A stretch of 63,343 nucleotides of DNA, filler included, from Bacteroidales bacterium (GTDB taxonomy: Bacteria > Bacteroidota > Bacteroidia > Bacteroidales > CAIWKO01), in NCBI GenBank assembly GCA_035389045.1. It is 9 parts of 9 records of this genome, joined end to end, with 100 filler letters (N's around TTAATTAATTAA, not from the genome) between each part and the next. Parts side by side here need not be neighbours in the genome. Positions count along the whole stretch, not along the records: positions 32,781 to 40,610 come from DAOORA010000111.1; 8 more parts are not named here. One strand, 5' to 3'. The notes under the pieces are model-generated. The model did no database searches. It was not told the DNA's origin and saw nothing but the letters and a program-made list of their open reading frames with translations. This document shows, piece by piece, positions 8,316 through 59,435 of the stretch (the first letter of the stretch is position 1; every line of letters begins with the position of its first letter). The position numbers and the translations under genes are program-made.

Positions 8316-8415
8316 NNNNNNNNNNNNNNNNNNNNNNNNNNNNNNNNNNNNNNNNNNNNTTAATTAATTAANNNNNNNNNNNNNNNNNNNNNNNNNNNNN
8401 NNNNNNNNNNNNNNN
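8316..8415. other. Artificial contig linker; others at 16481-16580, 24625-24724, 32681-32780, 40611-40710, 47754-47853, 53529-53628, 59278-59377
   Basis: 100 nt of N with a central TTAATTAATTAA six-frame stop. Confidence 0.98.
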
Positions 8416-8526: not shown

Positions 8527-9798
8527 TTATCCTTCAAGCACACAAACCAGTTCAGGAATCACCTCAAGGGTGTTCTCGTCTCTTATGCGGTCTAAAGATT
8601 CCGTAAAATCTTTAAATAAACGAGCGTTTTTTTTATTCCAGGGCGTTTCAAGATGGCTGAACAAAGAGGTGAACTGCTGCCTTAATCCAACTCCGTATTT
8701 TTGTTCATAATGGTCAATATAGGTATCCATTTTGTTTCGTATGTCTTTTCTGACCTCATCCGGGAGGATGCTGACATGAAAAATTTCAGGAATAGTTATA
8801 ACGTTAAAATTGAAATTCTGCCACCATTTATCAGCATGATTAATGATACCTGTTTCGGTCAGGTAATCAATTAAATCTGTGATGGTAAAAATATTCATTG
8901 CACTTACCGAAATATTGGGCATGATAAAAACGCCTACCTGGTTAACGGCCTTCAGGTTAGCTTCAATTGTACTCCATTTTGTGCCACTGCGGATCAGTTC
9001 GGCACGCCGGCCTGTAGCGTCTATACTTGGCAGCAAAGTAACCCTGTCACCCCATTTAGTCCAATAATCCAGGGCATTCTTATTTTTGTACTTTAATACA
9101 CTCAGATTGGTAGAATAAGTCAATAACACATCATATCTTTTATGCTCATCAAGCAAGTCGAGTATCTGCCAATGTTCATCCATAAGCAGCGGTTCTCCGC
9201 CTGCAAAGTAAATCTGCTCCACCGTGGAGAGATTTTTTCTCACAAAATCCAAATAATTGATACGGTTTACAGATTTTATATTTACTGGTTGCTCAAGTGT
9301 ATCCTCACTAATCCATCCCAGTTTTTTGGCATCATACAGCCATCCGCTGGAAGATTCAAAACTGCAGGTACGGCATTTAAAATTACACCGGTTGCTGAAA
9401 CGAAAATCCCAGTACTTTAGCTCTACTTTCTCTAAGCTCCCGTCAGGTCTTGTGATTTGAGGAATCTTCTTAAACTTATCAGCAAAATGACCGTTTTGCA
9501 GCGTCCGGATACTCGAACCACATACCCGTTCATCATCAAAACAACGTCGGCACATTTCAGGTTCTATACCCTTAAGCATCTTCTTTCGCATAGTTCTCAA
9601 AAAACGTCCGTTCCAAACTTCTTCTATGGTTTGTTTGTTAAGATCTCCTGCATAATTCTTATGATCGAGTGTCATACAGCATTGCAGGACTTTACCATTG
9701 GGCCTGATATTCAAATGTACCCACGGTAATACACAGATTGTATCTTCCGGCCTCTTTTTTATTTGGTCGGGTTTAAAAAACCTATGAAAATTGCTCAA
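8527..9798 (-). CDS. Radical SAM protein with N-terminal twitch/SPASM domain, paralog A
   Basis: CVLPW..QCC..CRRC at the N-terminus; CNFKCRTC; FAGGEPLL; TTG start. Confidence 0.85.
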   Translation of the reverse strand: MSNFHRFFKPDQIKKRPEDTICVLPWVHLNIRPNGKVLQCCMTLDHKNYAGDLNKQTIEEVWNGRFLRTMRKKMLKGIEPEMCRRCFDDERVCGSSIRTLQNGHFADKFKKIPQITRPDGSLEKVELKYWDFRFSNRCNFKCRTCSFESSSGWLYDAKKLGWISEDTLEQPVNIKSVNRINYLDFVRKNLSTVEQIYFAGGEPLLMDEHWQILDLLDEHKRYDVLLTYSTNLSVLKYKNKNALDYWTKWGDRVTLLPSIDATGRRAELIRSGTKWSTIEANLKAVNQVGVFIMPNISVSAMNIFTITDLIDYLTETGIINHADKWWQNFNFNVITIPEIFHVSILPDEVRKDIRNKMDTYIDHYEQKYGVGLRQQFTSLFSHLETPWNKKNARLFKDFTESLDRIRDENTLEVIPELVCVLEG

Positions 9799-10122: not shown

Positions 10123-11394
10123 TTATCCTTCCAAAACACAAGCAAGTTCAGGGATCACCTCAAGGGTATTTTCCCCTCTTATGCGGTCTAAAGATTCCGT
10201 AAAATCTTTAAATAAACGACAGTTTTTTTTGTTCCAGGGTTTTTCAAGATGGCTGAATAAAAAAGTGAACTGCGGTCTTAATACAACACCGTATTTTTGT
10301 TCGTAATTATCAATATAGGTATCCATTTTCTTCCGGATATCTTTCCTGACCTGGTCAGGGAGTATACTGACATGGAAAAAGGAAGGCGTGTACAAAATGT
10401 TAAAATTGAAATTCATCCACCCTTTATATGAATGATTAATGATGCCTGTTTCTGTCAGATAATCAAACAAATCCGTCAGAGAAAAGATACTCATTGCACT
10501 TACCGTAATATTAGTCATAATAGAAACACCGATCTGGTTAACAGACTTCAGGTTAGCTTCTATAGTACTCCATTTTGTACCACTGCGGATCAGTTCTGCA
10601 CGTCGTCCTGTAGCGTCAATACTGGGCAGCAAAGTAACCTTGTTCCCCCACTTTACCCAATAATCCAAAACGTTTTTATTTTTATACTTCAGTACACTCA
10701 GATTGGTTGAATACGCCAATGACACATCATATCTCTTATGCTCATCAAGCAAATCGAGTATCTGCCAATGTTCATCCATGAGCAGCGGTTCTCCGCCTGC
10801 AAAGTATATCTGTTCGACAGAGGAAAGATATTTTTTTAAAAATTCCAGATAATTAATCTGATTTACATATTCTACATTATTCGGTGTATTTATTTCATCC
10901 CCGCTAATCCATCCAAGTTTTTTAGCGTCATGGAGCCATCCGCTGGAGGAATCGTAACCACAAACACGGCATTTAAAATTGCAGAGGTTGCTGAAGCGGA
11001 AATCCCAGTGTTTCAAATCCACTTTCTCCAAACTACCATCAGGCCGGGTGATTTCTGGTATTTCCTTGAACTTATCTGCAAAAAATGAATTATAGAAGGT
11101 GCGGGAACTCTTTCCGCTTGCCCGTTCTTCATCGAAACAACGCTGGCACATTTCAGGCTCTATACCATTAAGCATCTGCATTCGCATGGTTTTCATATAA
11201 GTTCCGTTCCACACTTCTTCTACAGACTGTGTGGTGAGATCACCGGCATAATTCTTTTCATCAAGTGTCATACAACATTGCACCACTTTGCCATTGGGTC
11301 TGATATTCAAATGCACCCATGGTAATACACATATGGTTTCCTCCGGTCTCTTTTTTACCTGCTTCGGTTTGAAAAACCCTCTGATTTTTCGCAT
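10123..11394 (-). CDS. Radical SAM protein with N-terminal twitch/SPASM domain, paralog B
   Basis: CVLPW..QCC..CQRC; CNFKCRVC; FAGGEPLL; colinear with paralog A; start may extend to 11412. Confidence 0.85.
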   Translation of the reverse strand: MRKIRGFFKPKQVKKRPEETICVLPWVHLNIRPNGKVVQCCMTLDEKNYAGDLTTQSVEEVWNGTYMKTMRMQMLNGIEPEMCQRCFDEERASGKSSRTFYNSFFADKFKEIPEITRPDGSLEKVDLKHWDFRFSNLCNFKCRVCGYDSSSGWLHDAKKLGWISGDEINTPNNVEYVNQINYLEFLKKYLSSVEQIYFAGGEPLLMDEHWQILDLLDEHKRYDVSLAYSTNLSVLKYKNKNVLDYWVKWGNKVTLLPSIDATGRRAELIRSGTKWSTIEANLKSVNQIGVSIMTNITVSAMSIFSLTDLFDYLTETGIINHSYKGWMNFNFNILYTPSFFHVSILPDQVRKDIRKKMDTYIDNYEQKYGVVLRPQFTFLFSHLEKPWNKKNCRLFKDFTESLDRIRGENTLEVIPELACVLEG

Positions 11395-11588
11395 TTTTGG
11401 TGTTTTCAACAAAAATACTGATTTATTCTTACGCTGAAATAACCTCCCCTAAAAACTAAATTACTACAGATAAAATAACATTATTGTCCGGTTAATTTTT
11501 TAAATATGTAATATTTCGTACCTGCGACGCTTCCAAAAATTGGTAAATTATTCATTATGATAATATTATAGACCTTTGGAACTTTTTT

Positions 11589-12698: not shown

Positions 12699-13652
12699 CT
12701 ATTTTCTCTGCAACACGTTTATCACGGCATTTACGACATCAGAAGTGTCAAGGCCGAATTTCACCATTAACTCGTCGGGAGTGCCGCTTTCGCCGAACAT
12801 ATCGTTCACAGCCACCATTTCTATAGGTGCGGGTAATTTGCGGGCAAGCAACTGAGCAATGCTGTCGCCCATACCGCCGTTCATCATGTGTTCCTCGGCA
12901 GTCACCACACATCTTGTTTTTGCAACGGATTGTAATACAGTTTCCACATCAAGAGGCTTGATCGTATGAATATTTATCAGTTCAGCGCTGATGCCCTGTT
13001 CTTTTAATTTTTCAACTGCCAGCATGGCTTTCCAAACCAGGTGACCGGTAGCAAAAATGCTTACATCACTGCCTTCGGCCATCATAAGAGCTTTCCCGAT
13101 CACAAAAGGTTCATCTTCAGGGATAAATACGGGCACTTTCGGTCTGCCAAAACGAAGATATACAGGTCCGATATGCCTGGCAGCCGCTTTGGTGGCTGCT
13201 TTGGTCTGGTTAAAATCACAGGGGTTGATAACCACCATATTGGGCAGCATCTTCATCATGCCGATGTCTTCCATCATCTGATGGGTGGCACCATCCTCAC
13301 CAAGGGTAATGCCCGCGTGTGAGGCACATATCTTCACGTTTTTATTCGAATAAGCCACACTCTGCCGAATCTGGTCGTACACCCTGCCCGTAGCAAAATT
13401 GGCAAAAGTGCCGGCAAAGGGAATTTTACCGCCTATGGTAAGACCGGCAGCAATGCCGATCATATTAGCTTCGGCAATACCCACCTGAACAAAACGTTCG
13501 GGAAAGTTCTTTGCAAAAGCTTCCATCTTCAGCGAACCCGTCAGGTCGGCCACAAGGGCAATGACATCCGGATTTTCCTGCCCCAGTTCGTTCAGTGCTT
13601 CACCAAAGCCCGAACGGGTATCTTTTTCACCTGTTTTTTTAAATTTCTCCAT
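12699..13652 (-). CDS. Transketolase, C-terminal subunit
   Basis: GIAEANM, GEDGATHQ, GPVYLRFGR, TIKPLD, AEEH. Confidence 0.93.
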   Translation of the reverse strand: MEKFKKTGEKDTRSGFGEALNELGQENPDVIALVADLTGSLKMEAFAKNFPERFVQVGIAEANMIGIAAGLTIGGKIPFAGTFANFATGRVYDQIRQSVAYSNKNVKICASHAGITLGEDGATHQMMEDIGMMKMLPNMVVINPCDFNQTKAATKAAARHIGPVYLRFGRPKVPVFIPEDEPFVIGKALMMAEGSDVSIFATGHLVWKAMLAVEKLKEQGISAELINIHTIKPLDVETVLQSVAKTRCVVTAEEHMMNGGMGDSIAQLLARKLPAPIEMVAVNDMFGESGTPDELMVKFGLDTSDVVNAVINVLQRK

Positions 13653-15185: not shown

Positions 15186-16046
15186 TTAATAATCACCTAA
15201 CGTCACCGGTAACTGTGAAAGTGCAGTGGTTAGCTGCTCATCACTGGGAGGACTGCCATGCCATTTATGCGAACCTTTCATAAAATCCACGCCGTAACCC
15301 ATTTCGGTTTTCATCAATATAACGACAGGAACCCCTTTAAAGGTATTTGCCTTTGCAATTTTCATCATGTCAAGCACTTCAGGAATGTCATTTCCGTCCA
15401 TTTCAAACACATTCCAGCCAAAAGCAGTGAATTTGGCTTTCAGGTCACCCAGACTCAGGACATCATCCACAGGCCCGTCAATCTGTTTACCATTATAATC
15501 CACAACTGAAATAATATTATCCACATGTTTGGCCGCCGCAAACATTGCCGCTTCCCAGTTCTGTCCTTCCTGAAGTTCACCGTCTCCGTGGAGGCTGTAC
15601 ACAAGGTGATTGTCAGCATTATATTTTTTTGCCAATGCTGCACCTATGGCCACAGATAAACCCTGTCCCAGTGAGCCGGATGACATTCGTACCCCCGGAA
15701 TATGTTCGGCAGTGGTCGGATGTCCCTGAAGTCGTGAACCCAGCCGGCGGAATGTTGCCAGCTCGCTGACATCAAAATATCCCGAATGTGCCAGTACGCT
15801 GTACCAGGCAGAAGAAAGATGCCCGTTCGACAGAAAAAAGATATCTTCGCCCGTGCCGTCCATACTGAAAGGTACCGGCCTGTGTTCCATAATCTCAAAA
15901 TACAGGCAGGTGAGAAAATCCGCACAACCCAGAGATCCACCCGGATGCCCCGAACTTACCGCATGGATCATTCGTAAGAGATCACGGCGTACCTGTGTCG
16001 CAATGTTTTTTAGTTCATCAACGGTGTACATAACATTTTTTTTCAA
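15186..16046 (-). CDS. Transketolase, N-terminal (ThDP-binding) subunit
   Basis: SGHPGGSLG, LQGHP, GSLGQG, GDGELQEG. Confidence 0.93.
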   Translation of the reverse strand: MKKNVMYTVDELKNIATQVRRDLLRMIHAVSSGHPGGSLGCADFLTCLYFEIMEHRPVPFSMDGTGEDIFFLSNGHLSSAWYSVLAHSGYFDVSELATFRRLGSRLQGHPTTAEHIPGVRMSSGSLGQGLSVAIGAALAKKYNADNHLVYSLHGDGELQEGQNWEAAMFAAAKHVDNIISVVDYNGKQIDGPVDDVLSLGDLKAKFTAFGWNVFEMDGNDIPEVLDMMKIAKANTFKGVPVVILMKTEMGYGVDFMKGSHKWHGSPPSDEQLTTALSQLPVTLGDY

Positions 16047-16420: not shown

Positions 16421-16580
16421 CAATAACATCTTTTTAAACTGATTGCAAATTAGCTAGTTGTAATTGAAGCTTTATCATTTNNNNNNNNNNNNNNNNNNNN
16501 NNNNNNNNNNNNNNNNNNNNNNNNTTAATTAATTAANNNNNNNNNNNNNNNNNNNNNNNNNNNNNNNNNNNNNNNNNNNN

Positions 16581-24518: not shown

Positions 24519-24724
24519 TTTTGATACAAAAAGTAAAAAATCAACGACAAAGTTATAAATAATAATTAATAACCTAAAATGATTTTTAAAGTTAATAACT
24601 ATGTAATTTTTCTATAGGGATATTNNNNNNNNNNNNNNNNNNNNNNNNNNNNNNNNNNNNNNNNNNNNTTAATTAATTAANNNNNNNNNNNNNNNNNNNN
24701 NNNNNNNNNNNNNNNNNNNNNNNN

Positions 24725-32680: not shown

Positions 32681-32780
32681 NNNNNNNNNNNNNNNNNNNN
32701 NNNNNNNNNNNNNNNNNNNNNNNNTTAATTAATTAANNNNNNNNNNNNNNNNNNNNNNNNNNNNNNNNNNNNNNNNNNNN

Positions 32781-32940
32781 CCTCTGCGTCTTTGCGAGAA
32801 AAGCATAATCCTCTCTGCGCCTCTGCGTCTCTGCGAGAAAAAAAACAGCGCTCTCCCTGCGCATCTGCGTCTCTGCGAGAAAAAAACTTAGCGTTCTTTG
32901 CGGTTATTGTTTACCGCAAGGACAGCAAGGGAAACGCAAG
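32781..32940. repeat. Array of CTCTGCGTCTCTGCGAGAAA-type short repeats plus a CTTTGCGG/CCGCAAGG hairpin
   Basis: At least 3 units; same family at 38176-38302. Confidence 0.8.
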
Positions 32941-32953
32941 GATCGCTATTTGT

Positions 32954-33253
32954 CAGTGGCGGTACGACTGCTCCGAATGAGCGCCTACGGCGAGCGCCAG
33001 CTTGTGTTGTTGGTGGTTCGTGCTGCCACCCTGAAAAAAAGTGTCAGGGTGACTGCTAATCGCCGGGTATCAGCGCGCCGAAGGCGCTCCTATGGAGAAG
33101 TCACCCCGACACTACCAAATAATACCAAATTGAAATATCAATTAGTCCAATGGGGCGTATTGATATTTCTTATTTGGTTATACCGATGATAAAAATAAAT
33201 AGTACAAACGAGTGAAGCGAAGTTTGGACTATATTATTTTTCAAATCGGTATA
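32954..33253. repeat. Cluster of four palindromic elements
   Basis: GTGGCGGTACGA..TCGTGCTGCCAC (32956-33029); AGTGTCAGGGTGACT..AGTCACCCCGACACT (33040-33113); ACCAAAT..ATTTGGT; TTATACCGAT..ATCGGTATAA. Confidence 0.75.
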
Positions 33254-33385
33254 ATCAATTCAATTTTTATCGTTGAACGAATTTACGTAAATTCATTCAA
33301 TAGATTGAACGTATTAATGTAAAAATATTCATCAAAATGATCAAATTAATGGAAAATTGTTTATTTTTGTAAAAAATTTCATAAG

Positions 33386-34516
33386 ATGATTATTCAGCGG
33401 CCCATTCAGAAAAAAATTGAAGGAAAACTAAAATCAGGCAAGGTCTTACTATTGCTTGGCGCTAGGCGGACCGGAAAAACATTTCTGATAAAGCAGATAA
33501 TTAAAAGCCTTAATACACACAGGCTGTTGTTAAATGGAGAAGATTTTCAGGTGGCTGCAAAACTGGAAAACAAAAGTATTTCTGAGTACAAACAAATTGT
33601 TGGGAAAAACAAACTGTTAATCATTGATGAGGCTCAGAAAATTAAAGATATCGGGAGGATACTAAAAATTATGATTGATGAGATTGATGGTTTGACGATA
33701 ATGGCAACAGGCTCATCAGTATTTGATCTTTCGCAGAAACTTGGGGAGCCTTTGACGGGCAGGAATATTAATTTTAAAGTTTTCCCAATAGCACAATATG
33801 AGCTGAAGGATTTAGAGAATCCCATTGAAACCCAATCAAATCTGGAGCAGCGGCTTATTTTGGGTTCCTACCCTGAATTGTTCTCCATGTCGGGATATGC
33901 AGAAAAGCAGGAATACCTGATCGGGCTTGTAAATTCTTTTTTGCTGAAAGATATTTTAGAATTGGACAACATAAAAAACGCATCAAAAATTCTAAATATA
34001 TTACGGTTACTGGCCTTTCAGGTAGGCAGTGAGGTGTCTTTTTCTGAGATTGGGCAAAAAGTGGCATTAAGCAGAAATACAGTGGAACGATATATTGACT
34101 TGCTTGAAAAAACGTTTATAATATTCTGCTTAGGTGGCTTTAGCAAAAACTTGAGAAAAGAGGTTTCAAAAAACTCGAAATACTATTTTTGGGATAACGG
34201 TATAAGAAATGCGGTCATTTCGAATTTTAACCCATTGAGTTTAAGGAATGACGTTGGGCAATTATGGGAAAACTATATTATTTCAGAAAGATTGAAATAT
34301 CTGGCTTATCAGACGAAACCGGCCAATGTGTTTTTTTGGAGGACTTATGATCAGCAGGAAATTGATTGGGTAGAGGAAAGAGCCGGAAAGCTGTTTGCAT
34401 TTGAAATAAAATATATCAAAAACAAAGTCAAAATTCCTGAAGCCTGGAAAGAAGCTTATCCCGAATCGGAATTTTCTGTAATTAGTAAGGAAAATTATTT
34501 AGATTTTATTACCTGA
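33386..34516 (+). CDS. AAA_14 ATPase with DUF4143 C-terminal domain
   Basis: GARRTGKT, IIDEAQ, TGSS, KYYFWDNG, LWEN, QEIDW..AFEIK. Confidence 0.88.
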   Translation: MIIQRPIQKKIEGKLKSGKVLLLLGARRTGKTFLIKQIIKSLNTHRLLLNGEDFQVAAKLENKSISEYKQIVGKNKLLIIDEAQKIKDIGRILKIMIDEIDGLTIMATGSSVFDLSQKLGEPLTGRNINFKVFPIAQYELKDLENPIETQSNLEQRLILGSYPELFSMSGYAEKQEYLIGLVNSFLLKDILELDNIKNASKILNILRLLAFQVGSEVSFSEIGQKVALSRNTVERYIDLLEKTFIIFCLGGFSKNLRKEVSKNSKYYFWDNGIRNAVISNFNPLSLRNDVGQLWENYIISERLKYLAYQTKPANVFFWRTYDQQEIDWVEERAGKLFAFEIKYIKNKVKIPEAWKEAYPESEFSVISKENYLDFIT

Positions 34517-34596
34517 TAATCACCATAGCGTTTTGCCAAATCTTGCATAATAATGAAAATCAATTTTCCCCTTCAGGCCGAGGCAAAAAATTATGC

Positions 34597-34651
34597 CAGT
34601 AGCGGTATGACTGAGCGCTGACTTGTTCCGTTTGCAGTTCGTGCTGCCACT
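34597..34651. repeat. Second copy of the 32954-33029 palindromic element
   Basis: CAGTAGCGGTATGACTGAGCGC..CTTGT..GTTCGTGCTGCCAC. Confidence 0.7.
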
Positions 34652-34727
34652 AAACCCCCATACCGTCACTCACCATCGCTTCAGAAATATTTTGACCCCG
34701 AATCTCTGATAAAACAATTTAAATAAG

Positions 34728-34735
34728 TATTTTTG
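34728..34735 (+). promoter_or_regulatory. Bacteroidota -7 promoter element upstream of gatE
   Basis: TATTTTTG matches TAnnTTTG, 25 nt before the ATG. Confidence 0.5.
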
Positions 34736-34760
34736 ACCGCCCAATAACAATTAATATATT

Positions 34761-36734
34761 ATGAAAGAAAATTTCGATCCTAAGTATAACTACGAAGAAA
34801 CTAAGGAAACTATTGGATATGTGCCACTGAAGAAGGCCACACAGGATGATTGGACCCGTATAGGTTTTATGTCCGGTCTGGAGGTTCACCAGCAGCTCAA
34901 AACCAAAGAAAAACTCTTTTGTCATTGCCCTGCAGGTCTATATCAGAAAAAAAATCAATATGATGCCGAACTTTTGAGGCATATGCGTCCGACACTGAGC
35001 GAATTGGGCGAGTATGACGGCACCGCGCTCATGGAGTTCAAAACACGCAAGGAAATTGTATACCGCATCAAGAACGAAACCGCATGTACCTACGATGTGG
35101 ATGATACGCCGCCCTTTAAACTGAATAAAGAAGCGCTGGAATATGCACTGGAAATAGCGCTGTTATGCAAACTTAATATCGTTGGCGAAGTACATATTAC
35201 CAGGAAGCAATACCTCGACGGAAGCATACCTACCGGATTCCAGAGAACCGCGATTCTCGGGGTGGAAGGTGAATTGTCGCTGAAAAACAAGAAAGTAAGA
35301 TTGATACAGTTAAGTATTGAAGAAGATTCATGCCGCGAAATTTCGGATATCGGCCACCGGCGTGTTTATTCCACCGACCGGCTGGGCGTGCCTCTGATAG
35401 AAACAGTCACCTATCCCGATATGATCAATCCTTACGAAGTAAAAGAAGCCTGTGATTCTATCCGTTTTCTAAACCGAAGCACCGGGAAGGTCAGAACCGG
35501 CATCGGCGCCGGGCGACAGGATGTAAATGTGAGTTGCAAAGGTGGAACACGTGTGGAAATAAAAGGTGTCGCTCATACCCGGTGGATACCCAAACTCACT
35601 CATAATGAGTCGTTCCGCCAGTGGTCCTTGTTGCATATCCGAGGAATATTGAACGAAAAAATGGGCGACGGCTCATCCTGGAAAATGAACTTTAGGGAGC
35701 TGGAACTTAGAGATTTTCGTTTCTCTAACCTCCCGCTGACCGACGAAAAAAAGAATGTATATAAATACTATGCCATTAACCTTCCGGGATTTAAAAAGAT
35801 ACTTTCGCACTTTACCCAGCCCGGTAAAATGTTTGCTGATGAAATCAGCGAAAGACTGAAAGTGATCGCCTGTATTGAAACACCCAACATGACACATTCG
35901 GAAGAGTTTGTTCCCCTGGTCAGTGAAGATGATTTCTCGAACATCAGAAACCTGCTTAGCGCAAAAGATACGGATGCCCAGGTCATCATCTGGGGACCTG
36001 AAGCAGACATGAAAACAGCCCTGGAAACAGTGGAAGAGCGATGTCTGTGGGCGTTTAAGGGAGTTCCCAACGAAACACGTAAATCATTTGAAGACGGAAC
36101 AACAATTTTTGAACGTGTATTGCCGGGAGCAGACCGTATGTATCCTGATACGGATTCTGTGCCTATACCCTTATATGATGATTATATCCTCCACTTGAAA
36201 AAAGGCTTGCCTACGGAGGTTATCACACGTTATCTCCAATTGAAAACATGGGATATTCCGGAAGATACGTATACTTATATTTTAAAGAAAAACCTGTTCC
36301 CCATTATTGACCAGATAGTCGAGAAATACGGATATGATCCCAAACGTGTCGGAACCTTTATCGGACATACGCTGAAACATACCGAAGGCCAACATGAAGT
36401 ATCACCTTATTTTGATTATGACATGATCCGTGAGATGTTCGGTTTTATTAAGGAAAAGAAGCTCGAATTTCCCATTGCCAAGCAGATGCTGCCTGTATTA
36501 ATGATGCACCCCAAAATGGATTTTGATTCTATTTTAGCCACGATAAAATTTAAAAAGATCAACAAGGAGGAAATACTTGCCAACATTCCGTTTATGAAAG
36601 AAAAATTCCGCCAGATACGTATTTCCGAAAAGCCGGATGTGGAAATAAACTGGATCATGGGCGGCTTGCGGAAGATGGCGACAGGAAATATGAACCTCAC
36701 TGAATTAAAAAAATTAGTCGAAACAAGTAATTAA
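34761..36734 (+). CDS. gatE: Glu-tRNA(Gln) amidotransferase subunit E (archaeal type)
   Basis: GLEVHQQL..KLFC.CP, RPTLSELGE.D, GFQRT, EED, DRLGVPLIE, RSTGKVR.G.G..RQDVNVS..GG.RVEIKGV, AspRS-like insertion, GVPNETR..LPGADRMYPDTD; 657 aa, longer than GatB. Confidence 0.92.
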   Translation: MKENFDPKYNYEETKETIGYVPLKKATQDDWTRIGFMSGLEVHQQLKTKEKLFCHCPAGLYQKKNQYDAELLRHMRPTLSELGEYDGTALMEFKTRKEIVYRIKNETACTYDVDDTPPFKLNKEALEYALEIALLCKLNIVGEVHITRKQYLDGSIPTGFQRTAILGVEGELSLKNKKVRLIQLSIEEDSCREISDIGHRRVYSTDRLGVPLIETVTYPDMINPYEVKEACDSIRFLNRSTGKVRTGIGAGRQDVNVSCKGGTRVEIKGVAHTRWIPKLTHNESFRQWSLLHIRGILNEKMGDGSSWKMNFRELELRDFRFSNLPLTDEKKNVYKYYAINLPGFKKILSHFTQPGKMFADEISERLKVIACIETPNMTHSEEFVPLVSEDDFSNIRNLLSAKDTDAQVIIWGPEADMKTALETVEERCLWAFKGVPNETRKSFEDGTTIFERVLPGADRMYPDTDSVPIPLYDDYILHLKKGLPTEVITRYLQLKTWDIPEDTYTYILKKNLFPIIDQIVEKYGYDPKRVGTFIGHTLKHTEGQHEVSPYFDYDMIREMFGFIKEKKLEFPIAKQMLPVLMMHPKMDFDSILATIKFKKINKEEILANIPFMKEKFRQIRISEKPDVEINWIMGGLRKMATGNMNLTELKKLVETSN

Positions 36735-36754
36735 TAGTTAAATATCATAACAAC

Positions 36755-38143
36755 ATGAGTGAAGATTTTTTTCAGGGATATAAAGGCGCGGCTCTTGAAA
36801 TATTGAAAAAATATAATGTACGGGTTTGGGGTCAGGCAGAAGTGGATACTACACGCGGGCAATTCAAGGGAACCGTGTTGCCTCGCGCCGAAAATGATGA
36901 CGACCAGCATATTGTCCTGAAGGTGGTCACGGGATATAACATAGGTGTTGATATAGCAACCATTCTTTCAATGAAGGAACTGGGCTATAAAAAAGCAAAT
37001 TATAAAATTCCTGAAAAAGAATTTCCCTATACGCCCGGACTACCAAAAGTAAAACTGATCGGCACCGGAGGCACTATCGCCTCGAGGCTTGATTATCGTA
37101 CCGGAGCCGTTATTCCGGCTTTTTCTCCCGGTGAATTATACGGAGCGGTTCCCGAACTTGCTGAGATTTGCAACCTGGAAACCGAAAAACTTTTTGCGGT
37201 TTTCAGTGAAAATATGGGCCCGGAGCAGTATAAAAAACTTGCCGTAGCGATAGGTCAGGAAATTGAAAAAGGTACCGACGGCATTATTATAGGCCATGGA
37301 ACGGATACCTTGCATTATACAGCTGCTGCTTTGACATTTATGGTTCAGAATCCTCCGATACCCATCGTACTTGTTGGCTCCCAAAGATCATCTGACCGGC
37401 CCAGCTCTGATGCCGCTTTGAATCTTATGCATGCAGCCACAGCTGCCGCACATGGCGATATTGCTGAAGTGATGGTATGTATGTTTGGGCCCACCTCCGA
37501 TGAATACGGTTTTTTGCATCGGGGAACCCGCGTCAGAAAAATGCATTCATCGTATCGTTCTACTTTTCGAACCCTTGGCGATATTCCCGTGGCTACCGTT
37601 ACCCGTAAAGGCGTGTTCCCGCAAAAACCAGTGTATAATCATCGCCGCCGGGACCCGGCAAATGTAAAAATAACACCTGTTTTTGAAGAAAAAGTGGGTA
37701 TGCTGTATTACTATACCAACATGCAGCCGGATATGATAGATGCCATGGTCGACAACGGTTATAAAGGTATTATTATTATTGGTACCGGACTCGGACATGT
37801 GAACAAGCCAATTTATCCGGCAATAGAAAGGGCTGTCAAAAAAGGAGTGGCAATATATATGACCGTACAGACGTTGTGGGGCTTTGTCCACATGTTCGTC
37901 TATGATACCGGTCGCGACCTGATGGCTAAAGGAATTATCCCGGCAGAAAATATGCTTCCCGAAGTGGCTTATATAAAACTGGGATGGGCCTTAGGGCAGA
38001 CCAGCGACCTGGAAAAAGTTAAAGAAATAATGCTGACACCAATAAATGATGATATCACAAAACGTGAACCCTATAACGGATACCTCATTTATCAGGGAGG
38101 GGTGAGAGAAGTCGAGGACTTCATTAAAAAGGTACACAAATAA
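36755..38143 (+). CDS. gatD: Glu-tRNA(Gln) amidotransferase subunit D (asparaginase-like glutaminase)
   Basis: GatD-type N-terminal domain (VLK..TGYNIG), TGGTIASRLDYRTGAV, SENM, HGTDT, GSQRSSDRPSSDA, RKMHSSYR.TF. Confidence 0.92.
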   Translation: MSEDFFQGYKGAALEILKKYNVRVWGQAEVDTTRGQFKGTVLPRAENDDDQHIVLKVVTGYNIGVDIATILSMKELGYKKANYKIPEKEFPYTPGLPKVKLIGTGGTIASRLDYRTGAVIPAFSPGELYGAVPELAEICNLETEKLFAVFSENMGPEQYKKLAVAIGQEIEKGTDGIIIGHGTDTLHYTAAALTFMVQNPPIPIVLVGSQRSSDRPSSDAALNLMHAATAAAHGDIAEVMVCMFGPTSDEYGFLHRGTRVRKMHSSYRSTFRTLGDIPVATVTRKGVFPQKPVYNHRRRDPANVKITPVFEEKVGMLYYYTNMQPDMIDAMVDNGYKGIIIIGTGLGHVNKPIYPAIERAVKKGVAIYMTVQTLWGFVHMFVYDTGRDLMAKGIIPAENMLPEVAYIKLGWALGQTSDLEKVKEIMLTPINDDITKREPYNGYLIYQGGVREVEDFIKKVHK

Positions 38144-38175
38144 GAACTCGTATTGGCTTGCCGGCATAAAAAAAT

Positions 38176-38302
38176 ATCTCTTTACGCCTCTGCGTCTCTG
38201 CGAGATAATAAACATATCTCTTTGCGCCTTTGCGTCTTAGCGAGAAAAAATAAACATATCTCTTTGCGTTGCGTCTCTGCGAGAAAAATCTCTTTGCGCC
38301 TT
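38176..38302. repeat. Second CTCTTTGCGCCTCTGCGTCTCTGCGAGA-type array
   Basis: About 4 units, same orientation as 32781-32885. Confidence 0.8.
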
Positions 38303-38361
38303 TTATGAATGTGACAGCTTCATTTTACCTGAACAACGGATAACCGGTATTTTTGGCGTTT

Positions 38362-39450
38362 TCAGATGTACTCGTCCCCTTTTTCTATTTTTACATCATT
38401 AACAAACTGCCGGATCTGTTGTTCGTCATTTTTACGGCATATCAACAACACGTTTCCCGACTCAACCACAATATGGTCATCCAGTCCTTGTAAGACAACG
38501 AGTTTGTTCTCCGGCATGTTCACAATGCAGTTGTGGCTGTCATACATAATAACATTTTTTCCGACTATGGCATTTCCCTTTTCATCTTTTTGCCTGTTTT
38601 CATATAAGGAGCCCCAGGTGCCCAGGTCGGACCATCCGAAATCGGAACGCAGGACATACACATTATCTGCTTTTTCCATGATGCCATAGTCAATGGAGAT
38701 GCTTCTGCAAGTGGTATACACCTGCTGTATAAATTCCGGTTCCTTATCCGTATTATATATACCCCTGCCTTTTTCAAAGGACTCTTTGATCTCCGGCAGG
38801 TGTTTTTCGAATGCCTGTAAGATACTTGATACCGACCAGATGAAAATTCCCGAATTCCATAAAAAATCACCACTTTCAAGAAATTGTTTGGCCATTTCGA
38901 GCACTGGCTTTTCCGTAAATGTCTTGACTTTTTTTATCCGTAAATCATCAGGATAGGTGTCAGTGTCTTTATATTGTATGTATCCGTAACCGGTGTCAGG
39001 CCTGCTGGGCTGGATGCCTAAAGTGAAAAGCCAGTTGTTTTTTGATGCCGCACTGAGTGCAGAAGAAATTATGCCGGTGAAGGCATCTTCGTTAAGTATG
39101 ATGTGGTCAGAAGGGGCAACAATTACGCTGGCATCAGGGTTTATCTCGTTGATTTTATAGCAGGCATAAGCTATACAGGGCGCAGTATTCCGGCGCGAAG
39201 GTTCCGAGACAATCTGCCTGGCATCTAAACCGGGAATTTGCTCCTTTACAAGCCCGGCATACTTTTCATTGGTAACAATGTAAATATTTTCTTTGGGTAC
39301 AGTTTTTTCAAAACGCTTAAATGTCTGCTGAATGAGAGTTTCGCCCGTACCTAATATGTCTATGAATTGTTTAGGGTGCGAGGTACGGCTCATAGGCCAG
39401 AAACGCGAACCGATTCCTCCTGCCATGATTACACAATAATTGTTGCTCAT
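38362..39450 (-). CDS. manC: Mannose-1-phosphate guanylyltransferase
   Basis: IMAGGIGSRFWPMSR..PKQF, EP.RRNTAP, PSDH, WNSGIF, SIDYGIMEK, WSDLGTW. Confidence 0.93.
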   Translation of the reverse strand: MSNNYCVIMAGGIGSRFWPMSRTSHPKQFIDILGTGETLIQQTFKRFEKTVPKENIYIVTNEKYAGLVKEQIPGLDARQIVSEPSRRNTAPCIAYACYKINEINPDASVIVAPSDHIILNEDAFTGIISSALSAASKNNWLFTLGIQPSRPDTGYGYIQYKDTDTYPDDLRIKKVKTFTEKPVLEMAKQFLESGDFLWNSGIFIWSVSSILQAFEKHLPEIKESFEKGRGIYNTDKEPEFIQQVYTTCRSISIDYGIMEKADNVYVLRSDFGWSDLGTWGSLYENRQKDEKGNAIVGKNVIMYDSHNCIVNMPENKLVVLQGLDDHIVVESGNVLLICRKNDEQQIRQFVNDVKIEKGDEYI

Positions 39451-39502
39451 CTTTTGTATTTTAATCTGGAAAATATTGGCAAAAATATTAAAATATAATT
39501 AA

Positions 39503-40273
39503 TTATAAATGAGTTTTTTGTTTATATATAGTCGGGGAAGAAGAAACGTTTTCAGAGAAATTCAGAGCATTGCTTACAGGCCTGACTTTCATAGCAGGGC
39601 TGACAAGGTACCAGCGCTTATTGTTTAAGCAAAAACACTTATAACGCGTTCTGACTTTATCTCCCTTACGGAACATATTTCCGTTGCGGATAGAAAAAAC
39701 AGAATCGGGTACCAGCTCAGCGAGAAATTGTCCGGAATAATCAATATCGTATTCGGACAGAACAAGCGAAAGACGATATTCGGCTTCATGAACAGATTTA
39801 CCGTTTCTTACGAAAACATTGATCAGCGCATGCTCAATTTCTTTGGGAAAAATATTTTTTTCAATCAAAGAAAGAATTAATATCCGGTAATTATCTTTCC
39901 ATTCGTGGCCATGCGGCTTGGCTTTTCTTCTGTATGTATTCCAAGTAAGCAGATGGGCAAATTCATGTGCCAAAGTGATTAAAAACGCATAGTTGTTCAA
40001 ATTGCGGTTTATGCTGATCCTGTGATATAAAAAACCATTTTCAGGAGGACGGTAATCTCCGGATTTTGTTATCCGCTCGCCTGATATAACGATCCTCACC
40101 GGGTAGGAAGATATCCACCCGAGCACGGTTTCATAAGCAGATCCGGGCAGATAGGATGAAAGAACTCCGTTATCCAATGCCGTGAGGTTTAGCGGTGTTT
40201 TCAATTTTATTACTGAAAGTAGGACACTGGTTATACCGGTGCTTTTTTGAAGCACATGATGAGATAACAACAA
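39503..40273 (-). CDS. SprT-like metallopeptidase domain protein
   Basis: R.TK.GDYR, TLAHEFAHL, KPHGHEWK; start codon uncertain. Confidence 0.8.
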   Translation of the reverse strand: MLLSHHVLQKSTGITSVLLSVIKLKTPLNLTALDNGVLSSYLPGSAYETVLGWISSYPVRIVISGERITKSGDYRPPENGFLYHRISINRNLNNYAFLITLAHEFAHLLTWNTYRRKAKPHGHEWKDNYRILILSLIEKNIFPKEIEHALINVFVRNGKSVHEAEYRLSLVLSEYDIDYSGQFLAELVPDSVFSIRNGNMFRKGDKVRTRYKCFCLNNKRWYLVSPAMKVRPVSNALNFSENVSSSPTIYKQKTHL

Positions 40274-40305
40274 CCACTGCTATCAGCAGGACAACAATAA
40301 GCATT

Positions 40306-40467
40306 TTAAATTTCATATAAAGGATTGTTTTGAAAATTGCGGGCTTTTATATTCGAAAATGTCGGGCAATCATGGCACTTGTGCTTTTTAGACGTTCTGC
40401 ACGAAGTGGAAGTGATTGCTAAACCGGCAAGTAATAAAAAGGCAAGGCACACACGGGACACTTTCAT
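40306..40467 (-). CDS. Small lipoprotein (53 aa) with a CxxCP motif
   Basis: MKVSRVCLAFLLLAGLAITSTS-C..KCHDCPTFS. Confidence 0.6.
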   Translation of the reverse strand: MKVSRVCLAFLLLAGLAITSTSCRTSKKHKCHDCPTFSNIKARNFQNNPLYEI

Positions 40468-40710
40468 CCTTTGATTTTTTATACAAACATAGGCATTTTT
40501 GACCAACGTACAAAACATATCAGAAAAACGCATAACTGAACATCATATTGTATGGGAATTTTTGCAAATAATATTTAAGGGCATCTCTATTAATCTTGAT
40601 CGGGCGCTTCNNNNNNNNNNNNNNNNNNNNNNNNNNNNNNNNNNNNNNNNNNNNTTAATTAATTAANNNNNNNNNNNNNNNNNNNNNNNNNNNNNNNNNN
40701 NNNNNNNNNN

Positions 40711-41449: not shown

Positions 41450-41522
41450 TGTCCTGTAGTGTAATTGGCAACACGTCTGACTCTGGATCAGAAGAGTTCA
41501 GGTTCGACCCCTGACAGGACAA
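41450..41522 (+). tRNA. tRNA-Gln(CUG), CCA not encoded
   Basis: Acceptor TGTCCTG/CAGGACA, D-stem GTGT/ACAC, anticodon arm TCTGA-CT CTG GA-TCAGA, T-arm TCAGG-TTCGACC-CCTGA. Confidence 0.95.
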
Positions 41523-41530
41523 CTCCCATC

Positions 41531-47753: not shown

Positions 47754-47853
47754 NNNNNNNNNNNNNNNNNNNNNNNNNNNNNNNNNNNNNNNNNNNNTTA
47801 ATTAATTAANNNNNNNNNNNNNNNNNNNNNNNNNNNNNNNNNNNNNNNNNNNN

Positions 47854-48073: not shown

Positions 48074-49294
48074 TTATTCAGGTTTGTTGTTAAGGATTTT
48101 TAAACAAAAATCTTTGATATGCATCCGTATAATGCCTTTGTATGTTGAAGTTTCGGCTATTTCATCCATGGTGAGCACGTACTTGGGAAAATTATCAGCT
48201 ATTTCAAGCAGGTTATCAAATTCGCGGTTAATGGTTTCTTGATTTGTCAGCATATACGCTACCTGTACATAGATTTTATCACCGGCTTTCTGTGCGATAA
48301 AATCAATCTCCTTATTTCCCTGCACACCCACGCTTACTGAGTAACCAGCCATTTTCAGATGCAGGTAAACGATGTTTTCAAGTATTTTATGAATATCTGT
48401 AGCTTTATAGCCAACAATAGTATTTCGGATACCAACATCTTCAAAGAAGTACTTCTCCCCGATTTCAAATATTTTCTTCCCTTCAATTCCTGTGCGCTTA
48501 ACTTTAAATATTAAAAATGAGGATTCAAGGTAGCCAAGATAATCAATTACTACCTGTGGTGAAATATTAATTTTCTGAGCTTTAAGGTATTCACTTATTT
48601 TTTTTGAAGAAACTATGCTGCCAAGATTATCAGATAAAAATCCAACTAAGTTTTCTAAAAACTTTACGTTTCGGATATTAAAACGAGCTACTACATCTTT
48701 CAGAAGTATCGTGTTGTAAATGCTTGTTAAGTATTCATAGGCGACCTGAATCTCTTTGCTTAGGTTAATCAGGTATGGGAGGCCCCCAAACTTCATATAG
48801 TCCTGAAATGATTCAACCGAATCAGAAATTTTATTAAAAATTAAAAATTCAGCATAGCTTAAACCAAAGACTTTTATTTCGATATACCTGCCGCTTAACA
48901 ACGTGGCAAGTTCACCCGATAGCAGGTTTGCATTACTCCCCGTGCAATAGATATCGAAGTTTTTTCTCGTTCCTAAATCTCTCAGCGTAATTTCAAAAGA
49001 TTCAATATCCTGAATTTCATCAATAAACAGGGCTACTTTTCCATTCTCTTTGACGTTTTTCTTAAGATAGTCAAACAGGTCGTCCGAATTTTTAATTGCT
49101 GAAAACTCATTTTGTTCTTTGTTGATATATATTATTTGCGTATTTGGTTCCTGAGTATTAATAAGGTCTCTCAGCTGCATAAGAAGATAACTTTTTCCCA
49201 CTCTTCTTTGACCAACCAATACCTTTATCAGCGATTTACCGATAAATGGTTTTATCTTTTCGATATACAAAGGTCTGTTTATGTAATCAACCAT
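48074..49294 (-). CDS. AAA_14/DUF4143 ATPase
   Basis: GQRRVGKS, FIDEIQ, TGSNA.LLSGELAT.LSGR, GGLP, LENIVY, EIDFIA..YVQV. Confidence 0.88.
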   Translation of the reverse strand: MVDYINRPLYIEKIKPFIGKSLIKVLVGQRRVGKSYLLMQLRDLINTQEPNTQIIYINKEQNEFSAIKNSDDLFDYLKKNVKENGKVALFIDEIQDIESFEITLRDLGTRKNFDIYCTGSNANLLSGELATLLSGRYIEIKVFGLSYAEFLIFNKISDSVESFQDYMKFGGLPYLINLSKEIQVAYEYLTSIYNTILLKDVVARFNIRNVKFLENLVGFLSDNLGSIVSSKKISEYLKAQKINISPQVVIDYLGYLESSFLIFKVKRTGIEGKKIFEIGEKYFFEDVGIRNTIVGYKATDIHKILENIVYLHLKMAGYSVSVGVQGNKEIDFIAQKAGDKIYVQVAYMLTNQETINREFDNLLEIADNFPKYVLTMDEIAETSTYKGIIRMHIKDFCLKILNNKPE

Positions 49295-53528: not shown

Positions 53529-53823
53529 NNNNNNNNNNNNNNNNNNNNNNNNNNNNNNNNNNNNNNNNNNNNTTAATTAATTAANNNNNNNNNNNNNNNN
53601 NNNNNNNNNNNNNNNNNNNNNNNNNNNNGGTAAAATTGCCGCAGCTTTTATTTATTTAATTTTTTAACCCTTGATTCGCATAAATAATACAAAAAACAGT
53701 TTTTTTTCAATACAAAATTAAAAATTTGCTTTTTAGAAACAAAATTTATTATATTTGAAAATAATTCTTAAAAAAGTGTTTTTCAAAAATTTTTTAAATT
53801 ATGATAAGTAAATAGATAATTAA

Positions 53824-59277: not shown

Positions 59278-59435
59278 NNNNNNNNNNNNNNNNNNNNNNN
59301 NNNNNNNNNNNNNNNNNNNNNTTAATTAATTAANNNNNNNNNNNNNNNNNNNNNNNNNNNNNNNNNNNNNNNNNNNNATTCCGGAGCAAACTCTGCCACT
59401 TTTGGGATTTCAGACAGTTTCTGAAACAAAAAATT

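Follow-up and report, generated by a model that had tools for sequence, protein, structure and literature searches.

We report that a 63,343-nucleotide (nt) stretch of DNA from a Bacteroidales bacterium (assembly GCA_035389045.1), hereafter the window, carries intact genes for the two subunits of a GatDE-type amidotransferase, gatE and gatD. The host is a sludge bacterium. The window is a pseudo-molecule in which nine contigs, approximately 4 to 8 kb each, are joined by N44-TTAATTAATTAA-N44 linkers that stop all six reading frames; since the pieces are glued together in this way, gene linkage across a linker is meaningless. The two genes lie next to each other on a single piece, with the following features:

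32781..40610, no strand: assembled piece carrying the operon, 7830 bp, with an N44-TTAATTAATTAA-N44 linker at either end
34761..36734, + strand: gatE, 657 amino acids (aa), kinase/amidotransferase subunit with cradle domain, AspRS-like insertion, helical domain and putative YqeY-like tail
35772..36023, + strand: AspRS-like (GAD) insertion of GatE, diverged, residues 338-421, weak match to PF02938
36735..36754, + strand: gatE-gatD spacer, 20 nt
36755..38143, + strand: gatD, 462 aa, asparaginase-type ammonia-releasing subunit with GatD_N (29-70), Asparaginase N (98-287) and Asparaginase C (313-426)

The initial annotation, made from the sequence, had described intact gatE and gatD genes 20 nt apart with features specific for each subunit, and this description holds. 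Neither reading frame has internal stops, and both products pass the equivalog cut-offs that archaeal GatDE passes, GatE with 396.6 bits against TIGR00134 (gatE_arch; cut-off 319.55) and GatD with 495.7 bits against TIGR02153 (gatD_arch; cut-off 324). GatE is just short of the cut-off for NF003107 (452.7 bits, cut-off 456) and fails that of the gatB model TIGR00133 (122.9 bits, cut-off 314.8); against all GatB models its scores are far under cut-off, the best being 124.2 bits where 338 is needed. Among solved structures, the GatDE complexes of Pyrococcus abyssi and Methanothermobacter thermautotrophicus come closest to both subunits (GatE: 2d6f_C, E 1.7e-83 over GatE residues 30-564, and 1zq1_C, E 1.4e-76; GatD: 1zq1_A, E 1.8e-116, and 2d6f_A, E 1.7e-112 over GatD residues 8-438).

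In GatE the motif RPTLSELGE is present at residue 76, and His43, Glu187 and Glu214 align to the M. thermautotrophicus Mg2+ ligands His15, Glu157 and Glu184, which are essential by mutation according to the consulted part of PMC2330236. The AspRS-like insertion, which in GatE interrupts the cradle domain and in GatB is lacking, is present and diverged: PF02938 matches it with 18.5 bits (E 0.0023), under the cut-off of 23.4, the Pfam GatB_N match spans 439 GatE residues but 274 of 277 model positions, and the region can be aligned to 2d6f_C over its full length. The putative C-terminal YqeY-like tail, a domain by which GatE contacts the D-loop of the tRNA, likewise gives a weak match to PF02637 (20.8 bits, under the cut-off of 27), and the NCBIfam match extends to model position 618 of 630. 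Identity to the archaeal rows of our alignment is just 15-25% in the insertion and tail domains, 15% in the tail region.

GatD has the Pfam domains GatD_N (PF18195), Asparaginase and Asparaginase_C, together with the motifs RLDYRTGAV at 111 and QRSSDRPSSD at 210. Its catalytic motifs GTGGTIAS (103), HGTDT (181) and RKMH (261) align with those of 1zq1_A and 2d6f_A; we take the Thr nucleophile and the Thr-Asp-Lys triad within them to have, in part, the roles familiar from the asparaginase family. For the other part, these residue roles are given in the consulted part of PMC2330236. Residues 96-435 also score 376.4 bits with TIGR00519, the model of the type I asparaginase subfamily, a feature in common with type I L-asparaginase (AnsA), yet GatD has the extra GatD_N domain, scores higher with gatD_arch (495.7 bits) and in 28 of the 30 loci is encoded directly 3' of gatE, in the same orientation. 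When five genomes with large contigs were searched with gatD_arch, each gave, besides GatD, a second, weaker match elsewhere of approximately 200 bits; these are read as asparaginases, with in-frame stops at the ends of the matches, beyond a frame of approximately 350 aa. Judged by these profile and alignment data the predicted products are true orthologues of GatE and GatD, not GatB or AnsA. Archaeal GatDE (2D6F, 1ZQ1) has the same two subunits in the same domain order, and the Mg2+ ligands of GatE as well as the Thr and Thr-Asp-Lys motifs of GatD are conserved between the two. Bacterial GatCAB catalyses the same overall reaction, and its GatB has the cradle catalytic domain in common with GatE, probably together with the YqeY-like tail; it differs in that its ammonia-releasing subunit is of the amidase type (GatA) rather than the asparaginase type (GatD), and GatC has no counterpart here.

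An archaeal-type enzyme in a bacterial metagenome-assembled genome (MAG) could be an artefact, i.e. an archaeal or chimeric contig that was binned wrongly. In its favour, the window consists of nine short contigs of a binned genome, and among the independent contigs listed none spans the 5' junction upstream of gatE by at least 31 nt on each side. The initial annotation had argued against contamination from two genes of Bacteroidota type on the same contig, which are located downstream of gatD:

38362-39450, - strand: manC (Pfam), a neighbour and no part of the enzyme system
39503-40273, - strand: sprT-like gene (Pfam), likewise a neighbour and no part of the enzyme system

These do share the 7830-bp piece with gatDE, but with nine concatenated contigs in the window the argument is weaker than it was made to be. 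Its conclusion nevertheless stands on other data. A pattern scan over one genome per species gave ten loci with GatE 79-87% identical to that of the window, all in Bacteroidales records and on contigs of up to 126 kb, and the order gatE-gatD-manC-sprT recurs in eight Bacteroidales MAG loci besides the window (gene families f2 and f3 after gatD). In other genomes GatE, GatD and GlnRS are all encoded on one contig of 3.7-5.4 Mb. A contig from an independent run covers gatD into manC with 0 differences, a G+C content of 0.40-0.46 is within the range of the window, and the bacterial clade to which the window GatE belongs is separate from archaeal-labelled sequences with support of 100/100 (see below). 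The operon is thus resident in a bacterial genome of the order Bacteroidales and is no archaeal contaminant, and we regard the probability of an artefact as negligible.

The spread of gatE within the order was estimated from an even sample of 401 genomes of the order to which the relative G001 belongs, counted at the model cut-off. GatE is above cut-off in 176 of these (44%); it was not found above cut-off in the other 225 sampled genomes, nor in the B. thetaiotaomicron control. A protein search with GatE gives at least 8000 matches at E ≤1e-20, and several proteins of MAGs assigned to Bacteroidales, Bacteroidota and Lentimicrobium are already named 'Glu-tRNA(Gln) amidotransferase subunit GatE' by the NCBI Prokaryotic Genome Annotation Pipeline, so bacterial copies are catalogued in the databases. 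Both genes are present in five of five genomes with large contigs. The spacer is exactly 20 nt in 7 of the 27 other loci with gatD after gatE. In two large-contig genomes the genes are intact and unlinked, approximately 340 kb apart in G079:C1 and 3.7 Mb apart by coordinates in G209:C1 (L058, L062, L094, L095). Beyond close relatives no conserved neighbour was found; apart from gatE and gatD themselves, every gene family is confined to at most 9 of the 31 loci. A glutamine synthetase gene (open reading frame, ORF, of approximately 505 aa) is situated approximately 8 kb from gatE in two genomes (G111:C1:4516486-4517538 and G281:C1:5364550-5365578), where it is located at the edge of a syntenic block common to four to six loci.

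For the phylogeny, GatE was searched against 1.84 billion representatives; of the 594 clusters matched at E ≤1e-30 the best 150 were taken, and the 109 rows of 580-720 aa among these were kept. A FastTree phylogeny of these rows together with the window has a clade of 33 rows that includes the window. A rooted tree, for GatE only, was computed from the window, 31 rows of this clade (P0185 was left out), 43 of the 77 other rows and five Bacteroidales GatB sequences as outgroup. The quick tree was beaten by a constrained tree by 64 log-likelihood (lnL) units and was set aside together with its approximately unbiased (AU) test result, and the IQ-TREE tree (LG+G4) was used instead. Organism names were obtained for 8 of the 30 representatives looked up, and most of the labels 'bacterial' and 'archaeal' used here for rows denote clade membership. 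Named rows within the window clade are from Deltaproteobacteria and the candidate division CSSED10-310, and those outside it from Heimdallarchaeota, Thermoprotei, Parvarchaeota, Thorarchaeota, Methanofastidiosum and Hodarchaeales.

In this tree bacterial GatE forms one clade (support 100/100), separate from all archaeal-labelled sequences. Its sister is a Heimdallarchaeota-labelled sequence (99/92) that lies among other Asgard-labelled rows, and not one tree among 200 bootstrap replicates held the archaeal rows together. A topology that unites these rows is nevertheless not rejected by the AU test (lnL 11.95 lower, p 0.419). With respect to the proposal of an inter-domain transfer in the initial annotation, the best tree favours an archaeal origin, but the AU result leaves such an origin short of established. 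We read these trees to mean that bacterial GatE is one ancient clade that probably derives from archaea; alternatively, the bacterial clade may branch outside all archaeal GatE, in which case GatDE would be ancestral to both domains and no archaeal invention.

Among the columns of the alignment, 83 are at least 90% conserved in the 42 archaeal-clade rows; 74 of these are unchanged in the window GatE, and 68 are also at least 90% conserved in the 31 bacterial-clade rows. The bacterial clade has in addition 17 signature columns that are fixed differently from the archaeal clade, several of them inside the insertion domain, and it has changes at two positions where each of the 42 archaeal-clade rows has a basic residue (K/R to H at 74 and K/R to T at 95). 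Compared with archaeal GatDE, the window protein is therefore a member of a separate clade with signature columns of its own and a weakly conserved insertion and tail.

A functionless relic on its way to loss has to be considered, which would fit the patchy distribution of the operon (not found in 225 of 401 genomes, nor in B. thetaiotaomicron) and the fact that it is not required on paper. The substitution data argue otherwise. Compared with nine relatives, the proportion of non-synonymous differences (pN) is 0.076-0.141 for gatE and 0.027-0.052 for gatD, while that of synonymous differences (pS) is 0.68-0.83, i.e. saturated. In the same genome pairs amino acid identity is 92-97% for GatD and 77-85% for GatE, compared to 69-83% for GluRS and 77-86% for GlnRS; purifying selection on gatE and gatD is strong and equal to or above that on these two synthetases. 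Each of the 21 genomes in a wider comparison has intact ORFs. Over these 21 genomes the pairwise distances of GatE and GlnRS are correlated (Mantel r 0.72, a value reached by 0 of 2000 permutations) and the mean p-distances are nearly the same (0.336 for GatE and 0.328 for GlnRS), which fits a long and mostly vertical residence. An isolated transfer into this one genome is thus contradicted, GatE being present in 176 of 401 Bacteroidales genomes and diverging in step with GlnRS. Moreover, two metatranscriptome runs from two studies have contigs with 0-1 differences over gatE, gatD, manC and sprT. Taken together with these near-identical contigs in RNA libraries, the intact ORFs and the selection make a relic very improbable.

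In teaching, GatDE is presented as a signature enzyme of archaea, and genome-based rules for bacteria take a lack of gatCAB to exclude an indirect route to Gln-tRNAGln. That GatDE is regarded as archaeal, as the initial annotation stated, agrees with the consulted parts of three reviews, from 2008 (PMC2330236), 2021 (PMC8007984) and 2022 (PMC9499178), which state that it occurs in archaea only. The gatCAB rule was applied to Bacteroidetes in PMC3927822, where GatDE is never mentioned, and our literature search found no paper describing a bacterial GatDE. The window copy is unexceptional within a large clade, one annotated in the databases and ignored in the literature; it adds one more carrier and nothing beyond that, and the interest is in the clade and not in the copy.

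What the enzyme does was approached through the rest of the glutamine and asparagine charging machinery. The initial annotation had proposed a third bacterial route to Gln-tRNAGln or a repurposed amidotransferase, and the status of glnS, gatCAB and gltX was tested in relatives of the window genome. GatCAB was found in none of 12 carriers tested: GatB is above cut-off in none of five close relatives (merely cross-matches on the GatE ORF) and in none of seven carriers with megabase contigs, and GatA gives no match in the five close relatives and none above cut-off in the seven megabase-contig carriers. GlnRS, on the other hand, is mostly present, being above cut-off in four of five close relatives and in 380 of the 401 sampled genomes. 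Nine or ten of the 20 genomes without GlnRS are GatE-positive, which leaves GlnRS in approximately 166 of the 176 carriers; GatDE is therefore no replacement route and no substitute for GlnRS in the order.

We favour, as somewhat better than an even chance, that the operon encodes a working GatDE amidotransferase, long resident in Bacteroidales, which transamidates Glu-tRNAGln on a tRNA with the pair U1-A72 beside GlnRS. GatE would bind Glu-tRNAGln and phosphorylate its gamma-carboxyl group using ATP/Mg2+, GatD would hydrolyse Gln or Asn, and the ammonia would pass through an inter-subunit tunnel to give Gln-tRNAGln, the enzyme accepting a bacterial tRNAGln with U1-A72 instead of A1-U72. Given that GlnRS is present, such activity would constitute a second, parallel route, or a clean-up of Glu-tRNAGln made by GluRS, and not the sole route. 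The data show the identity and intactness of the genes, the conservation of the catalytic residues, purifying selection, a wide distribution, coexistence with GlnRS and, in the 12 carriers tested, the lack of GatCAB; which substrate the enzyme uses, its tRNA specificity, a non-discriminating GluRS and the role in the cell are inferences.

A number of observations weigh against this assignment. In addition to GlnRS in approximately 166 of 176 carriers, AsnRS is above cut-off in five of five close relatives, and with both synthetases in carriers the GatDE pathway is not needed on paper. GatDE without GlnRS or GatB is seen in 8 of 174 genomes (G010, G069, G113, G169, G200, G325, G326 and G327; G325 has a sub-cut-off GatE fragment only, and a GluRS match is present in seven of the eight), and no route at all is seen in 6 of approximately 220 non-carriers, which is not clearly lower. 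The five close relatives have one GluRS per genome, of the bacterial type; a marker of the non-discriminating kind was looked for without success, and the residue at the column of Thermus thermophilus Arg358, which reads C36 (PMC12088422, PMC3927822), is Arg in 22 of 22 Bacteroidales GluRS. The pair U1-A72 is present in 12 of 12 tRNAGln genes examined, with the same D-arm and with CUG and UUG isoacceptors, and tRNAGln is alike in GatDE carriers and non-carriers. The transcription of gatDE that the RNA-run contigs suggest is read from assembled contigs, which show neither strand nor level, and no biochemical data on any bacterial GatDE were found in the literature searched.

Arg at the Arg358 column is also present in all four genomes with GatCAB and without GlnRS, which are expected to need a non-discriminating GluRS. 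The usual GluRS marker thus fails an internal control in Bacteroidales and is uninformative in this order; the consulted part of PMC3927822 likewise indicates that the Arg358 rule for discriminating GluRS is not universal. As regards the tRNA, A1-U72 is a positive element of tRNAGln for archaeal GatDE, while bacterial GatCAB recognises U1-A72 (PMC2330236, in the part consulted), the pair of the Bacteroidales tRNAGln genes examined here, so that a switch of specificity within the same function is plausible. Relative to archaeal GatDE, the system described here thus differs in its host, a bacterium which, judged from relatives, has GlnRS, in a tRNAGln with U1-A72 rather than A1-U72, and in having a GluRS of the bacterial type instead of an archaeal-type non-discriminating partner.

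GatDE as the sole route was considered for the eight genomes that lack both GlnRS and GatB. It fits them and was rejected, because the proportions (8 of 174 against 6 of approximately 220) can be explained by MAG incompleteness, from which it is indistinguishable. GatCAB itself occurs in a minority of the order: G090, G220, G321 and G402 have GatB and no GlnRS, with AsnRS in all three that were tested. Two further genomes, G087 and G217, have GatB above cut-off together with GatE and AsnRS and no GlnRS match, i.e. two amidotransferases and no direct route to Gln-tRNAGln.

The same absence of a missing aminoacyl-tRNA, GlnRS and AsnRS both being present, could mean that the enzyme was repurposed, i.e. 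that it kept its chemistry and acts on another acylated RNA or on a carboxylate other than tRNA, with no supply of Gln-tRNAGln. This would explain why constraint at the level of housekeeping genes is seen beside GlnRS and AsnRS, and why tRNAGln and the Arg358 column of GluRS are the same in carriers and non-carriers. It would also suit the lack of the archaeal identity pair A1-U72, the 17 signature columns, several in the insertion domain, the changes at the basic positions 74 and 95, and the identity of 15-25% to archaeal rows in the insertion and tail. Yet 74 of the 83 archaeal-conserved columns are kept, including all the Mg2+ ligands, the four-domain architecture of GatE appears to be retained, as is the GatD_N domain, no conserved neighbour suggests another pathway, and a change of the first base pair within the same function is plausible in view of what GatCAB reads. 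We therefore consider repurposing a rather unlikely alternative, albeit the first among those weighed here.

A different substrate within tRNA-dependent amidation would be Asp-tRNAAsn, with GatDE providing asparagine synthesis as GatCAB does in Thermus, Deinococcus and Bdellovibrio. These bacteria likewise keep a seemingly redundant amidotransferase beside both GlnRS and AsnRS (PMC4206432, in the part consulted) and so provide a precedent; they differ in using GatCAB for asparagine synthesis, whereas the enzyme here is GatDE, and an asparagine synthetase is encoded by most carriers. Among the seven large-contig carriers asparagine synthetase is above cut-off in five (asnB in four and asnA in one), while one (G062) has neither asnA nor asnB above cut-off and another (G111) has an asnB-like match of just 254.9 bits, which is sub-threshold. 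Furthermore, archaeal GatDE rejects Asp-tRNAAsn, and the GatE insertion, which is kept here, is modelled to clash with AspRS (PMC2330236, in the part consulted). An Asp-tRNAAsn amidotransferase thus appears improbable to us. A metabolic gap as the reason for retention was also looked for and discarded, as glutamine synthetase is present in seven of seven carriers and asnB or asnA in five of seven, with no systematic gap.

Returning to Glu-tRNAGln transamidation, GatDE is retained beside GlnRS, and strongly constrained, in 44% of the Bacteroidales species sampled. Should it act on bacterial tRNAGln, Gln-tRNAGln would be made in two parallel ways in a major bacterial order, which would bear on translational fidelity, nitrogen-stress physiology, the essentiality of GlnRS and the history of the glutamine pathway; if it is inactive on tRNAGln, a new activity is to be discovered in a well-studied fold. 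Carriers with megabase-sized and probably finished contigs exist, and any of them that is in culture would make the question accessible to experiment.

With respect to other features of the window, the 7830-bp piece contains a DUF4143 ATPase gene, gatE, gatD, manC and sprT, and the many genes with a type IX secretion system tail are all on pieces other than this one. A candidate promoter upstream of gatE and the linkers are located as follows:

34728..34735, + strand: candidate promoter TATTTTTG, fitting the Bacteroidota -7 consensus TAnnTTTG, 25 nt 5' of the gatE ATG
8316-8415, 16481-16580, 24625-24724, 32681-32780, 40611-40710, 47754-47853, 53529-53628 and 59278-59377: eight linkers, N runs with the linker sequence

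The promoter motif reported in the initial annotation is indeed present, but TAnnTTTG has 73 matches in the whole window where chance predicts 75.6; by itself the motif is no evidence of a promoter. Two weak hints come from the RNA runs: one of their contigs starts at 34760, and the upstream region of approximately 1.5 kb (33251-34756) has almost no contigs in these runs, yet is covered by a DNA run. Another RNA-run contig, X3 (depth 29.9), links 37780 to 39484 via 15 foreign letters and is probably chimeric or from another organism.

The AAA_14/DUF4143 ATPase gene 5' of gatE (33386-34516) has no counterpart upstream of gatE in related loci. It is scarcely covered by RNA-run contigs, and the contig of one DNA run departs from the window upstream of 34708; the gene may represent a strain-specific insertion. 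A second DUF4143 gene is present in the window at 48074-49294.

The tRNA-Gln(CUG) gene at 41450-41523 was considered as a linked substrate gene and ruled out, since it is on a different concatenated contig, which is without glnS. No tRNA gene was found within 8 kb of gatDE in nine related loci. In three genomes, G001 (L012), G002 (L011) and G003 (L014), a tRNA-Gln(CUG) gene is situated 70-1100 bp 3' of glnS on the same strand.

Finally, two adjoining paralogous radical SAM/SPASM genes are present on the - strand of one piece (8527-9798 and 10123-11412) and may constitute a peptide-maturase pair, and transketolase is encoded by separate N-terminal and C-terminal genes (12699-13652 and 15186-16046, - strand) with a gene for a von Willebrand factor A (VWA) domain protein between them.

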